DNA of 32,000 nucleotides, taken from positions 1-32,000 of the IMG/VR virus record IMGVR_UViG_3300045988_006330, one strand, 5' to 3'. The stretch comes from a virus. Positions 12,580 through 14,845 of the stretch are shown here, piece after piece. Both the position numbers and the translations under genes were made by a program. How positions within the stretch are numbered: position 1 is the first letter of the stretch; every line of letters begins with the position of its first letter. The notes below the pieces were generated by a model. The model had not been told where the DNA came from, did no database searches, and saw only the letters and a list, made by a program, of their open reading frames with translations.

Positions 12580-12983
12580 TTCCAAGATATAGAGCGTGGC
12601 TTAAAGAAGATAAAGAAATGGTAGATGTGGATGATATTATCGCTATCAATTTCGAAGAAAAAGAAATTTGCGTGCAAACAATCTATTTTGAGCAAGGATT
12701 GCCAGATAGTCGAGATTTAGACTACTACGATTTCGACGATATCGTTTTAATGCAATCAACTGGAATGATAGACAAAAACGATAGAGAAATCTTCGAGGGG
12801 GACATTATTGACTCGACAGACGGATTCCTCACTGGCGTAATTGAATTTAGAGTAAGTTTAGGGATGTTCGTTAGTGATTTGGTAGAGTATAACAACTTCG
12901 AACGTTTATGCAATGTTGCCAGCTCAAGGAAAATTATCGGAAATATATGGGAACACCCAGAATTGGCAGAGGTAAGCTCATGA
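12576..12983 (+). CDS. YopX-family protein
   Basis: MIPRYRAWLKEDKEM...REIFEGDII...IIGNIWEHPEL is the typical YopX N-terminal and C-terminal signature. Confidence 0.8.
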   Translation: MIPRYRAWLKEDKEMVDVDDIIAINFEEKEICVQTIYFEQGLPDSRDLDYYDFDDIVLMQSTGMIDKNDREIFEGDIIDSTDGFLTGVIEFRVSLGMFVSDLVEYNNFERLCNVASSRKIIGNIWEHPELAEVSS

Positions 12984-13690
12984 GCAAAACCTACAAATAT
13001 TCAGGGCTGACACCAGAGCTGTATCAACGGCTGGTCAGTGAACATGCGGAACTCAAACAAGCACATAAAAAAGGCTCTTATAAGCAGTTCTTCCAAGAGG
13101 TCAAGCAGTGCGATGAGTTACAAGCCCGCATCATATATCAAGCATTCAACGCCGCAGTCGTGGAACGTGCGAGGATATCGCCAGCTACTGTAGACAGGTT
13201 AGAAGGCATTATTTCTGATGAATTATTCAACGACCTTCAAGATTATCTATCTACCAATTACACAAGAGGCAAAACCACGCGCCCACTGTTGGATAAAACC
13301 AACGCAGGACTGCCAGAGGGGCTGTTTAAACGGTTCCAGGAAGAAGTGGAAGGATTACGCAAGGAACACCCTAACAACCTAAATAGCTATATTAGAGACG
13401 TCAAGGACTGCGACCAGAAAAATGCTAACAGAACCCAAAACGCCCTCAATCTGTGCTATGCGGAAAAAGCTGCACTAACGCCTTTGAAGGCTATTCAAAT
13501 GGAAGGGCTACTTTCAAGAGGGCTATTCAGCGAAATTATTGATTACGTCTTCAATAACTATGAATGGAGCGAGAGATTGGACAATGAGGTTGATCGCATT
13601 ATTCTTAAATATCGGACTAGGGGCAAAGTTGGACGTAATAAAATAACTGTAAGAAAAGCCTTATATAAAGCCTATGCGCTAGGCGTGTAG
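12980..13690 (+). CDS. Hypothetical protein with an internal tandem duplication (two repeats of about 88 aa)
   Basis: The track ORF is trimmed to the ATG at 12980 (ATGA overlap with yopX, AGAGG RBS). Repeats lie at 12998-13261 and 13301-13561. They share GL-P-LF/Y-R...H...Y...VK-CD...EG-(I/L)S--LF---DY--NY. Confidence 0.7.
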   Translation: MSKTYKYSGLTPELYQRLVSEHAELKQAHKKGSYKQFFQEVKQCDELQARIIYQAFNAAVVERARISPATVDRLEGIISDELFNDLQDYLSTNYTRGKTTRPLLDKTNAGLPEGLFKRFQEEVEGLRKEHPNNLNSYIRDVKDCDQKNANRTQNALNLCYAEKAALTPLKAIQMEGLLSRGLFSEIIDYVFNNYEWSERLDNEVDRIILKYRTRGKVGRNKITVRKALYKAYALGV

Positions 13691-13729
13691 CTAGAACGGT
13701 CTATGAGGGTTCGACTCCCTTACTAGCTA
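13689..13729 (+). other. tRNA-like acceptor/T-arm minihelix A (not a complete tRNA)
   Basis: T arm GAGGG-TTCGACT-CCCTT (13705-13721). The acceptor-like stem AGCTAG (13689-13694) pairs with CTAGCT (13723-13728). Only a 9-10-nt linker stands where the D and anticodon arms would be. It begins within the upstream stop codon. Confidence 0.5.
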
Positions 13730-13753
13730 TTACCAGTCAATCTATATACGGAA

Positions 13754-13777
13754 AAGAGGAATCCTTTTGTATTTTTT
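13754..13777 (+). terminator. Weak terminator-like hairpin plus T6 after the early operon
   Basis: AAGAGG-AAT-CCTTTT (6 bp including one G-U, 3-nt loop) followed by GTATTTTTTC. Confidence 0.3.
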
Positions 13778-13974
13778 CATTCAAATCAGCGGAAGCGTGA
13801 CTGGTCGTGGATGCAACCAAATCCAGTAAATAAACAATTAGAATCGAGGAACCTTTTTTATTTCGTTTACTAATCTAAAGCGTATTACTGGTAACGTGAT
13901 TATTCAAGGTTTTATGCCTGCAATGCGAAACTGAAATCTCCATAATTCTACTTACTTTATTCTTGTATTATTTC

Positions 13975-13995
13975 AAAAAAAGGAGGAAAACCTCC
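13975..13995 (-). terminator. Minus-strand intrinsic terminator; alternatively a plus-strand SD-sequestering hairpin
   Basis: GGAGG-AAAA-CCTCC is preceded on the plus strand by A7, so on the minus strand the hairpin is followed by U7. Confidence 0.5.
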
Positions 13996-14015
13996 AAAAT
14001 GATTTCTATATCGCA

Positions 14016-14058
14016 GGCTGGAATGGTTGTATAAGAGGTTCGATTCCTCTTGCCAGTC
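14016..14058 (+). other. tRNA-like acceptor/T-arm minihelix B (not a complete tRNA)
   Basis: T arm TAAGAGG-TTCGATT-CCTCTTG (14032-14052) abuts a 6-bp stem, GGCTGG (14016-14021) with CCAGTC (14053-14058). The G-U pairs favour the plus strand. It shares TAT-R-AG-GGTTCGA-Y-TCC...CCAGTC with element A. Confidence 0.5.
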
Positions 14059-14428
14059 GTTGTCTGTCATCACTAAAAATAAAAATGAAGCTAAAAAATG
14101 AATATAGATTTTTAGTGGCTTGAACACTTTTCGACACGGACAAGCTGACAGACCTTGTCCAAACAAACCCAGCAAATTTTAAGAAAAAAGGATGTGAAAA
14201 ACCCTCTTTCTTATTGATATCTTGCATTACTAAATAGCCAAAGACCTTGCTGGTGTCGATGGCTAGAAGGAGGTGATAAAAGGCTTGAGAAACACCCAAA
14301 GAATAAATACGTATTCTATCTTTTCAATAAAATCTCTTAACGTTTCTTGAGCTAAAATAAAAAAGACCGACACAATGGCCGGCACTTTCTGAAAGTCAAC
14401 ACTACTATTATACCAGAGAGGGCTTAAA

Positions 14429-14845
14429 ATGCTATTGCCGGAAATTGATGAGAAAGCAACAATCAAACGTTGCAAGCGCAAACTTCGAGAATACCCACGA
14501 TGGCGAGAAATTGCACACGATAGCGCCGAGCAGAAAATAACACAGGAATTCACCTTTATGCCCCGTGGTGGCAGTGGAGTGAGCAGACCAGTGGAAAATA
14601 TTGCAGTTAGGCGTGTCGATGCTATGAACGAGCTAGAAGCCATTGAGCAAGCAGTTAGCGGGTTATATCGTCCAGACTATCGCAGAATACTGATAGAGAA
14701 ATATCTGGCATACCCACCGAAACCAAACTGGCAAATTGCCCAGGGAATTGGCTTTGAAAGAACAGCCTTTCAAGAATTGCTAAATAATGCCATCCTAGCA
14801 TTCGCAGAATTGTACAGAAATGGTCAATTAGTCGTGGAACGTTGA
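14429..14845 (+). CDS. ArpU-family late transcriptional regulator
   Basis: MLLPEIDEKATIKRCKRKLREYPRW... and its position immediately upstream of terS are typical of ArpU/RinA-type late activators. 138 aa. Confidence 0.8.
   Translation: MLLPEIDEKATIKRCKRKLREYPRWREIAHDSAEQKITQEFTFMPRGGSGVSRPVENIAVRRVDAMNELEAIEQAVSGLYRPDYRRILIEKYLAYPPKPNWQIAQGIGFERTAFQELLNNAILAFAELYRNGQLVVER

Follow-up and report, generated by a model that had tools for sequence, protein, structure and literature searches.

The window analysed here, 32,000 nucleotides (nt) of the IMG/VR virus record IMGVR_UViG_3300045988_006330, represents a prophage of Streptococcus that belongs to the salivarius/thermophilus group of phages, and its largest non-coding stretch free of open reading frames (ORFs), positions 13691-14428, is a plus-strand modular structured RNA region between the last early gene, coding for a DUF1340 protein, and arpU, the gene of the late activator. 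It consists of tRNA-like minihelices, pseudoknot modules and an extended Shine-Dalgarno (SD) sequence with no gene behind it, and a structured region common to all sampled phages of the S. salivarius/thermophilus group probably acts at the switch from early to late gene expression. The original prediction, made from the letters of the DNA, had noted a coding desert of about 740 base pairs (bp) at this place and had offered a large structured RNA or decayed cargo to account for it. The desert is real (738 bp, without a conserved ORF), all the features listed for it are present, and the structured RNA stands insofar as conserved, non-coding and covarying plus-strand helices are present, but these are strung together as small modules whose copy number varies rather than making up one large ornate RNA. 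The order of the modules, and the two minihelices that the same prediction had recognized, are as follows.

13691-14428 with the adjoining end of the DUF1340 gene, architecture in the window: T1, C-a, C-b, linker X, T2, K1/H7/H8, C-c/H9, SD, tail.
13688-13729, plus strand: minihelix T1, with a 7-bp acceptor stem TAGCTAG (13688-13694) / CTAGCTA (13723-13729).
13695-13703, plus strand: 5' bulge of T1, AACGGTCTA, 9 nt with a D-loop-like GG (consensus AAYGGTTTA).
13704-13722, plus strand: T arm of T1, stem TGAGGG (13704-13709) / CCCTTA (13717-13722), loop TTCGACT (13710-13716).
14016-14058, plus strand: minihelix T2, with a 6-bp acceptor stem GGCTGG (14016-14021) / CCAGTC (14053-14058) and one bulged G.
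14022-14032, plus strand: 5' bulge of T2, AATGGTTGTAT, which carries the GG again.
14033-14051, plus strand: T arm of T2, stem AAGAGG (14033-14038) / CCTCTT (14046-14051), loop TTCGATT (14039-14045).

Searches anchored on ArpU and on DUF1340 returned 160 IMG/VR loci and, with the GenBank phages added, 111 distinct gap sequences; the comparison with related phages and the covariation test that had been proposed along with the original prediction were carried out on this set, and both conservation and covariation were found. In 39 distinct copies of T1, 97% of the alignment cells are paired, in comparison to 32-54% with slid partners, and the 7-bp acceptor helix reaches 99.6%. Three pairs have changed on both sides (TAGCTAG/CTAGCTA to TAGCCAG/CTGGCTA, and GAGGG/CCCTC to GACGG/CCGTC), and the covariation score was reached by none of 500 shuffles. 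For T2 (23 distinct copies) all cells are paired, 5 of the 12 pairs have changed on both sides, with GGCTGG/CCAGTC turning into GACGGG/CCCGTC or GGCGAG/CTCGTC and AAGAGG/CCTCTT into CATGGG/CCCGTG, and again 0 of 500 shuffles match. At two positions of T2 the commonest pair is G·U, which places the minihelix structure on the plus strand; the frequent G·U pairs assign the structures in general to this strand. When a covariance model was trained on T1-type copies only, it recovered T2 with 22.4 bits (E = 4e-4); the same model gives 68.5 bits for T1 of the window and up to 28.3 bits for copies from S. thermophilus phages, and no further convincing match was obtained with it across the 32-kb window. 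Along these lines, the motif GGTTCRANTCC occurs only twice in the 32 kb, both times in the desert and on the plus strand. The T-loop reads TTCGAYT in most copies and TTCGAAT or TTCAACT in a few, with an invariant GG...CC closure. Loop, G-C closure and the GG of the bulge agree with tRNA conventions (U54 U55 C56 R57 A58; G18 G19), and the canonical T-loop together with the conserved bulge GG suggests an elbow-like fold. In the TP-J34-type minihelix the acceptor and the T stem form a continuous 12-bp helix.

The special feature of the first minihelix is its overlap with the upstream gene. The DUF1340 stop codon TAG (13688-13690) supplies acceptor bases 1-3 of T1 in the oral type, and it lies inside the first minihelix in every case; in the TP-J34 type (L002, L163-L168) it spans the junction of acceptor and T stem. 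A terminating ribosome must therefore unwind the minihelix. Neither minihelix is a tRNA gene: ARAGORN located no tRNA or tmRNA (transfer-messenger RNA) gene in the window and 162 related loci, which also removes the tRNA-gene-adjacent context assumed by the original prediction, and the 5' strand of the acceptor is separated from the T stem by only 9-11 nt, with no cloverleaf. A tmRNA was rejected on the negative results of ARAGORN and of Rfam, the missing G3·U70 (acceptor pairs 1-3 are U-A, A-U, G-C in T1 and G-C, G·U, C-G in T2) and the missing tag reading frame. YrlA or another bacterial Y RNA was likewise rejected, there being no Rfam match and no D stem, with DUF1340 and ArpU, and not a Ro60 (Rsr) gene, as the neighbours.

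The second line of evidence comes from four modules of the window, in each of which a single-stranded 7-8-mer has its complement in a hairpin loop 60-85 nt further downstream. Three of these are called C modules, and the fourth is formed by the strand K1 and the hairpin H8.

13733-13804, plus strand: module C-a, CCAGTCA (13733-13739) / TGACTGG (13798-13804), the latter in the loop of a short GCG/CGT hairpin.
13823-13891, plus strand: module C-b, CCAGTAA (13823-13829) / TTACTGG (13885-13891), the latter in the loop of a GCGT/ACGT hairpin.
14062-14069, plus strand: 5' strand of K1, GTCTGTCA, complementary to TGACAGAC in the H8 loop (14146-14153).
14071-14117, plus strand: hairpin H7, CACTAAAAAT / ATTTTTAGTG, a perfect 10-bp inverted repeat and variable insert between K1 and H8.
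14138-14160, plus strand: hairpin H8, stem GGACAAG (14138-14144) / CTTGTCC (14154-14160), with the near-invariant 9-nt loop CTGACAGAC (14145-14153).
14169-14265, plus strand: module C-c, CCAGCAA (14169-14175) / TTGCTGG (14247-14253), the latter in the H9 loop.
14235-14265, plus strand: hairpin H9, outer stem TAGCCA (14235-14240) / TGGCTA (14260-14265), inner stem GAC (14243-14245) / GTC (14255-14257).

In unique contexts the C-type pairing occurs in the Watson-Crick states CCAGCAA/TTGCTGG (62), CCAGTAA/TTACTGG (53) and CCAGTCA/TGACTGG (22), with CCGGCAA/TTGCCGG (2), CCAGCTA/TAGCTGG (1) and CCAGTTA/TAACTGG (1) as rarer forms, and wobble intermediates are present as well (CCAGTAA/TTGCTGG 14, CCAGTTA/TGACTGG 3, and a further G·U form once). 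A pseudoknot-bracketed tool count on 39 units gave 92.9% of cells paired, a value that does not exceed 38.6% with slid partners, and two-sided changes in 8 pairs versus 3.4 ± 1.2 in shuffled alignments. The host hairpins change too: that of C-b appears as GCGT/ACGT, GCGC/GCGT and ACGC/GCGT, the stems of H9 are swapped wholesale in some lineages (GATTAGCAAT/ATTGCTGATC, AGTCTTGC/GCAAGACT, TAGCCAAAG/CTTTGGCTA), and some lineages have entirely different 8-10-bp stems as hosts of their C modules. The C modules thus possess the two crossing helices, each of them covarying, by which an H-type pseudoknot is recognized. The interior of C-a holds a T-run and an SD-like AAGAGGAA; the module is itself one repeat of a tandem unit of about 91 nt, and deletion variants lack exactly one such unit.

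Hairpin H8, which the original prediction had already placed correctly at 14138-14160, is the clearest case: in 43 distinct copies 6 of the 7 pairs have changed on both sides, and the covariation score of 0.577, compared to 0.161 for shuffles, was matched by 0 of 500. No fewer than nine distinct H8 stems bear the loop CTGACAGAC, among them the stems found in S. thermophilus phages 5093, TP-J34, P7601 and CHPC928, and GTCTGTC lies within 160 nt upstream of 147 of the 153 CTGACAGAC loops. What follows the minihelix in the unique gap sequences is GTCTGTCA in 97 cases, GTCAATCT, the start of a C module, in 23, and GTCTATCG in one. Measured as an H-type pseudoknot, K1/H8 combines a strong H8 stem with one compensatory case for the K1 pairing. 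This case is the divergent locus L081, where strand GTCTATC and loop GATAGAC represent an exact compensatory change, the pairing being invariant elsewhere; L081 likewise preserves T, H8 and the two C pairings with different sequences. It is likely that K1 and H8 pair partially or in alternation. H7, present in the oral-phage variants and replaced or lost in S. thermophilus phages, has weak covariation support (76-88% of cells paired). In one locus (L037) the H8 loop now reads CTGACTGGC, which matches the C-a strand rather than K1. Two further pairings were discarded because they are not kept in homologues, i.e. the long-range helix TCGACAC/GTGTCGA (14131-37 / 14253-59) and a GCTTG/CAAGC pairing from a single-sequence fold. 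Whole-region folds by RNAalifold were noisy, and helix-by-helix tests were used instead.

The gap is present in all loci retrieved, with a length of 95-790 bp, and in more than 100 distinct oral-streptococcal phage contigs. The order DUF1340, gap, late regulator is retained whatever the family of the regulator, be it ArpU, DUF1492/LtrB or a third type. A tblastn search with DUF1340 led to 336 GenBank phage records, all of them Streptococcus phages with mostly S. thermophilus hosts, and the sampled members of Moineauvirus, Brussowvirus, Vansinderenvirus and Piorkowskivirus, genera of S. thermophilus phages, combine DUF1340, a gap of 267-479 bp and a late regulator. The same context emerges from a DNA pattern that makes no use of proteins (T-loop ... 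GTCTGTC ... CTGACAGAC): among 2.9 million IMG/VR contigs it marked 92 stretches, of which 72 of 74 are preceded by DUF1340 and 69 of 70 followed by a late regulator. A scan of genome contigs with the DUF1340 protein as query gave no confirmed locus, and the pattern GGTTCGANTCC-N10-16-GTCTGTC proved too loose for genome contigs, the matches listed being in unrelated genomes and probably ordinary tRNA genes. Three loci separate the element from its usual neighbours. In L373 the DUF1340 gene is lost, yet its last approximately 20 nt and the minihelix are kept; in L312 (1780-2202) the element precedes a third, unrelated candidate regulator of 140 amino acids (aa); in L347 (3577-4248) it follows an ORF of 223 aa to which tblastn with DUF1340 gave no match. 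From the last two contexts it can be concluded that the element tracks the early/late junction and not one flanking gene.

BLAST and MAFFT comparisons showed the gap to be modular, with short versions that lack whole blocks and deletion junctions that fall between repeated units. The oral-phage architecture is shared at 70-95% DNA identity, and the dairy phages repeat it with different sequences, as the following versions illustrate.

P7601, 267 nt, shortest sampled dairy-phage version: T, K1/H8, C, SD, tail.
CHPC928, CHPC926 and L5A1: two tandem T-K1/H8-C-SD units.

Hybrid T copies and unit-sized deletions indicate that recombination between repeats reshuffles the array. Among the individual variants are a T1/T2 hybrid minihelix with a mismatched acceptor (L010), a 95-bp gap in which T is cut off inside the T-loop (L053), and 242-bp gaps without K1/H8 (L036/L042/L059). 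Such features raise the question of an element acting at the level of DNA, i.e. a replication origin or a site of the phage-encoded-resistance type, a packaging site, protein-binding repeats or a recombination hotspot. The many direct and inverted repeats, the length polymorphism, deletion junctions exactly between T or C repeats, T1/T2 hybrids such as L010, and the fact that GenBank records of several pac-type phages begin inside the region would all suit it; against this, changes that preserve pairing by way of G·U intermediates are unexpected for double-stranded protein sites, and the canonical T-loop indicates RNA mimicry, so that a DNA element appears highly unlikely. One member of this group, an Sfi21-type origin or phage-encoded-resistance element, was rejected on position, such an element lying inside the DNA replication module and the desert following the last early gene and bordering on the late regulator.

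The comparative data also bear on the decayed cargo of the original prediction. T-arm-like fragments that are not full tRNAs, and a region that can shrink to 95 bp, might be taken for functionless relics, either of tRNA genes or of a cargo gene since lost. Every helix tested covaries, however (H7 weakly), the modules are held by compensatory changes across phage genera, the architecture shared in oral phages recurs with different sequences in dairy phages, the context is the same in about 97% of the contigs found by pattern, and neither a full tRNA nor an intact ORF occurs at the desert in any homologue; the chance that decay is the explanation is accordingly very small. Protein-coding readings fare no better. 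The minus-strand ORFs had been described as unlike proteins, and indeed the TTG-started frames of 72 and 97 aa are interrupted in 23 of 23 full-length homologues and matched no Pfam or PHROG family. Plus-strand frames of 70-117 aa occur in some homologues and were dismissed, having TTG or GTG starts, differing frames and low-complexity sequences, and being neither conserved nor matched by a Pfam or PHROG family.

A known RNA family was sought with Rfam 15, the covariance-model search (ROOL, GOLLD, tRNA, tmRNA) that had been advised together with the original prediction. There were zero matches at gathering score in the window and 20 homologous or related loci, and with permissive filters and E <= 10 the interval 13500-14600 gave neither ROOL nor GOLLD, just chance matches and T-loop fragments, those matching tmRNA models being 13-17 nt long. 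Membership in ROOL, GOLLD or another described large RNA family, which the original prediction had put forward as its lead, has only its context to recommend it, a long ORF-free stretch in a Firmicute prophage; set against the Rfam result and the absence of tRNA genes nearby, its probability is close to nil. Within the sensitivity of Rfam 15 and ARAGORN, these searches rule out ROOL, GOLLD, tmRNA, YrlA and true tRNA genes.

Downstream of the last pseudoknot lies a perfect SD sequence, AAGGAGGTGA at 14267-14276, which had been noticed from the start and belongs to a longer purine-rich site. It is listed here with linker X, the block between C-b and T2.

14265-14277, plus strand: orphan extended SD, AGAAGGAGGTGAT, of which GAAGGAGGTGAT (14266-14277) makes 12 consecutive pairs with the 16S 3' end.
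13917-14015, plus strand: linker X, with a hairpin GGAGG (13982-13986) / CCTCC (13991-13995) preceded by A7 (13975-13981).
13999-14034, plus strand: mini-ORF, ATG at 13999 and TAA at 14032-14034 inside T2, with a hairpin-sequestered SD upstream.

With the 3' end of 16S rRNA, which we take to be …GAUCACCUCCUUUCU-3', at least nine consecutive pairs are possible in 94 of the 111 distinct gaps, versus 88 of 2220 shuffled gaps (4%), and the longest complementarity extends over 14 nt (AGAAAGGAGGTGAT). Most other SD variants, for example GGGAGGTGGT, retain the pairing by means of G·U. No conserved ORF follows the extended SD; a GTG or TTG frame is intact in just 8 of 23 homologues. The site thus has the sequence features of a STAB-SD, i.e. 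an SD-like, 16S-complementary leader sequence with no conserved ORF behind it, and in phages with duplicated units it occurs once per unit. The hairpin of linker X, whose 5' arm is SD-like, covaries (GGAGG/CCTCC, GGGG/CCCC, GGAGA/TCTCC). Read on the minus strand it is a hairpin followed by U7, and the minus-strand terminator seen earlier at 13975-13995 is borne out in this sense, with the hairpin at 13982-13995 and the A-run at 13975-13981, as a candidate; the hairpin may serve either strand. The 11-codon ORF described after AGGAGG exists, its coordinates having been one base off. Its start ATGATTTC is kept in every listed copy of linker X (about 40 distinct sequences) and its frame and length vary, from which it follows that translation as such, rather than the peptide, may matter.

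Some alternative pairings may be recorded at this point. A perfect 10-nt complementarity joins AAGAGGAATC (13754-13763, inside C-a) with GATTCCTCTT (14042-14051, the 3' half of the T2 T-loop and the 3' strand of its stem), and such a pairing could unfold T2; by a rough estimate about 0.3 matches of this kind are expected by chance per 740 nt, and it was not seen in the sequences of S. thermophilus phages. The pyrimidine tract CCCTCTTTCTT (14202-14212) can pair with the purine tracts AAGAAAAAAGG (14181), AGAAGGAGG (14265) and AGAGAGGG (14415, in the region of the arpU ribosome-binding site, RBS), and these alternatives (14181-14212, 14264-14273, 14413-14422) are conceivable as a translational switch, a possibility read from base complementarity.

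The tail of the desert, 14354-14428, follows a fixed order of A-run, minus-stable hairpin, minus-strand TnTGnTATAAT and regulator RBS, and contains two predicted signals.

14383-14354, minus strand: intrinsic terminator, hairpin GCCGGC-CATTGT-GTCGGT (plus-strand 14383-14366), its U-run corresponding to the plus-strand A-run 14354-14364.
14407-14417, minus strand: predicted extended -10 element TCTGGTATAAT (plus strand ATTATACCAGA), with a poor -35, about 25 nt upstream (minus sense) of the terminator.

The minus-strand extended -10 of the original prediction is thus present as TGGTATAAT, displaced by one base to 14415-14407. At 14383-14354 a G+C-rich hairpin runs directly into a U-run, as in a predicted minus-strand terminator. 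Folding of 14350-14400 yields -13.3 kcal/mol for the minus strand versus -3.0 for the plus strand, and two unrelated LtrB-type tails show the same preference (-12.9 vs -2.3; -10.3 vs -5.6). The terminator sequence is near-invariant over approximately 60 distinct tails, and ATTATACCA or ATTATATCA is found in nearly all ArpU-type tails as well as in the sequence-unrelated LtrB-type ones. The pair of extended -10 and terminator has been noted in three unrelated tail sequences with different late regulators (the window, L164-L168, and the LtrB-type IMG/VR loci). From these signals the tail would give rise to an RNA of about 45 nt antisense to the 5' untranslated region of the regulator (arpU). One may go further and regard the minus-strand transcripts as the functional product, a short antisense RNA running from TGGTATAAT to the 14383-14354 terminator and perhaps a longer one to 13995-13975, which would repress or insulate the late activator, e.g. 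in the lysogen, and would render the plus-strand structures secondary. The three unrelated tails with extended -10, minus-stable hairpin and U-run, and weak minus-strand promoter-like sites at 14340-14300, point in this direction; on the other hand, they account for the last approximately 75 nt only, on the minus strand the G·U pairs of the minihelices, of H8 and of the 7-mer/loop pairings become A·C mismatches, and many homologues have an interruption (TTTCGTTTTT) in the U-run of the 13995 terminator or keep only four T of it. As an explanation of the desert this is improbable, being plausible for the tail only.

The flanking genes and the placement of the window can be summarized in a few lines.

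12908-13690: ORF of the DUF1340 protein, 260 aa, family DUF1340/phrog_1814.
14429-14845, plus strand: arpU, late transcriptional activator of the ArpU family (phrog_248 'transcriptional activator', E = 5e-44), RBS GAGAGGG at 14416-14422, start codon at 14429-14431.

The terminase genes (small, large) come next after arpU, and the window arpU is 96-100% identical to that of 80 IMG/VR loci. Hosts were assigned from named phage and protein records (S. salivarius, S. thermophilus): the nearest named phage relatives of the window are the S. salivarius phages SA-TP2 and Javan536, and an S. salivarius-annotated DUF1340 protein has 93% identity to that of the window. The AlphaFold2 model of the DUF1340 protein is all-helical (predicted local distance difference test, pLDDT, 72.7). 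A sequence search of the PDB returned no homologue and Foldseek no match better than E = 1.8, and neither gave a hint of an RNA-binding role. By eye only, a tandem duplication of a unit of about 100 aa is apparent in the protein (window 12980-13687).

As to function, one should start from phage 2972, for which RNA sequencing (RNA-seq) placed ArpU in the early cluster and found no separate late promoter, the authors proposing differential processing and stability (PMC11551762). Both observations lead to the proposal that the desert is an intercistronic leader whose processing and stability gate the late activator, a reading by analogy to which we give a little less than an even chance. Early transcription would run through the desert into the late-regulator gene, as is suggested by the promoter and terminator scan, which detected no canonical plus-strand promoter or terminator inside the desert. 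RNase P and/or RNase Z would then recognize the minihelices and sever the leader of the late regulator from the early mRNA; a 7-bp acceptor stem has been reported as a major determinant for RNase P (PMC4201824). The pseudoknots and a ribosome bound at the SD-like site might, as in STAB-SD, keep 5'-exonuclease away from the 5' end so created; translation of the regulator might be adjusted by the pyrimidine tract and the small antisense transcript. Overall, both the time at which the late activator appears and its level would be gated post-transcriptionally.

Several points weigh against this leader, or limit how far it may be pressed. The functional steps are argued solely by analogy. An RNase P cut at T1 would take away the DUF1340 stop codon, no CCA is encoded 3' of the acceptor (the next bases are T-TACCAG or A-TTGTCTG), and the helices are non-canonical, T2 having an acceptor of 6 bp plus a bulged G and T1 a total of 13 bp, not 12. 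No 5' end is predicted at the extended SD, which comes only about 210 nt after T2. The K1 pairing has a single covarying case (L081), and with 0 nt between the loop and the 3' arm of H8, all eight K1 pairs and the full H8 cannot coexist. Modules are dispensable in some contigs, as shown by gaps of 95-242 bp without K1/H8, one of which truncates T. The thermodynamic z-scores are weak to modest (14015-14280: -2.3 plus, -2.05 minus; 13685-14019: -1.2 plus, -0.8 minus), and the argument has therefore been based on conservation and covariation, not on folding energy. Finally, many of the sequences are closely related and the cell counts exceed the number of independent events; in view of this kinship, the case is strongest where entire stems differ between oral and dairy phages, and in the L081 lineage.

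A bolder form of the same thought can be put forward tentatively, as possible though doubtful: that the region represents an undescribed class of phage RNA, in which minihelices recruit the host's tRNA-processing machinery to cut the polycistronic early mRNA, and a chain of pseudoknots together with a ribosome trap, complementary to the anti-SD over 12-14 nt, set the fate of the late-activator message. If this were true, the early-to-late switch of the sampled S. salivarius/thermophilus-group phages would be largely post-transcriptional, and the released tRNA-like pieces may serve a second, trans-acting role.

An action in trans could also be the primary one. The minihelices, with or without the pseudoknots and the 16S-complementary site, would then be released as small stable RNAs that mimic tRNA or the tRNA-like domain of tmRNA, and that titrate or recruit RNase P, the CCA-adding enzyme, EF-Tu, SmpB or the 30S subunit, or act as a decoy for a tRNA-directed defence nuclease. 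This is in line with the canonical T-loop and conserved bulge GG, with a copy number of one to two or more units as for a dosage-type accessory, with a complementarity to the 16S 3' end of up to 14 nt, well beyond the needs of initiation, and with the retention of T in L373 despite the loss of DUF1340. The modules have no plus-strand promoter or terminator of their own, however; their fixed place upstream of the late regulator (approximately 97%) is a better fit to a role in cis; aminoacylation, or a role as decoy for anticodon nucleases, is unlikely for a structure without anticodon arm, CCA and G3·U70; and tmRNA and YrlA are unmatched in Rfam. Taken together, a primary action in trans seems rather unlikely, and the intercistronic leader is retained as the working proposal.

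The ingredients of the region are precedented, comprising tRNA mimics, H-type pseudoknots and SD-like stabilizers; Rfam 15 contains neither the element family nor its architecture, and no description was found in the searchable literature (DUF1340, streptococcal-phage tRNA-like elements, TP-J34 stem-loops). The GenBank records of the pac-type phages 2972, 858 and CHPC1248 begin inside the non-coding region and match from record position 10 or 132, and in these records the DUF1340 gene (checked in CHPC1248), hence the first minihelix, is located at the far right end. An element split over the ends of a record may explain the lack of earlier remark, and annotation pipelines, which leave the region blank or put spurious small ORFs there, may have contributed. 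The TP-J34 record has six unnamed stem-loops annotated in the region. Among the biological threats to yoghurt and cheese fermentations S. thermophilus phages rank first, and CRISPR research relies on them as a workhorse; the desert element represents a concrete candidate for their early-to-late switch, the step for which RNA-seq of phage 2972 showed no late promoter and RNA processing was invoked. It would add a motif of tRNA mimic plus pseudoknot to the RNA catalogue and provide a new target for engineering phage resistance.

Among known systems, the minihelices come closest to the tRNA-like domains of YrlA/Y RNA and tmRNA, with which they share an acceptor-like stem, a canonical T arm and a D-loop-like partner in the absence of an anticodon arm. 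The YrlA of M. smegmatis, with an acceptor stem of 7 bp, is a substrate of RNase P and acquires CCA (PMC4201824). In contrast, the minihelices lack a true D arm, the Ro-binding helix, G3·U70, an encoded CCA and a tag ORF, and the first of them is embedded in an mRNA across a stop codon instead of forming a separate gene. The role proposed for the minihelices is that of a tRNA-shaped element at the boundary of functional units, and such processing signals are familiar within longer transcripts, as in the RNase P cuts in intercistronic regions of E. coli operons, in mascRNA at the MALAT1 3' end and in the tRNA-miRNA units of murine gammaherpesvirus 68 (MHV68). Unlike these signals, the minihelix has neither D nor anticodon arm and is joined to pseudoknots and an SD-like site, and the cleavage is a proposal only in the present case. 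The orphan SD has its counterpart in the STAB-SD of Bacillus thuringiensis cry3A, an SD-like sequence without start codon in the 5' leader, about 100-150 nt upstream of the gene, and in the early RNA of Bacillus phage SP82, where a polypurine 5' stabilizer is found downstream of an endonuclease cut. The desert likewise has an SD-like site without start codon in a leader, about as far upstream of the gene, on a phage early transcript and downstream of a putative processing site; its 16S complementarity is longer (9-14 nt) and occurs once per module unit, the stabilizing effect being putative. A viral RNA with a tRNA mimic and a string of pseudoknots also calls to mind the 3' tRNA-like structures of turnip yellow mosaic virus (TYMV) and tobacco mosaic virus (TMV), which are located at the genomic 3' end, are aminoacylatable, and have a pseudoknotted acceptor and an upstream pseudoknot domain, whereas the desert has an internal element with a simple helical acceptor, and its pseudoknots follow on the downstream side. 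With ROOL and GOLLD, finally, the region has in common the Firmicute prophage and a long non-coding stretch; it differs from them in having no covariance-model match and no neighbouring tRNA genes, and in its construction as a chain of small modules of variable number.

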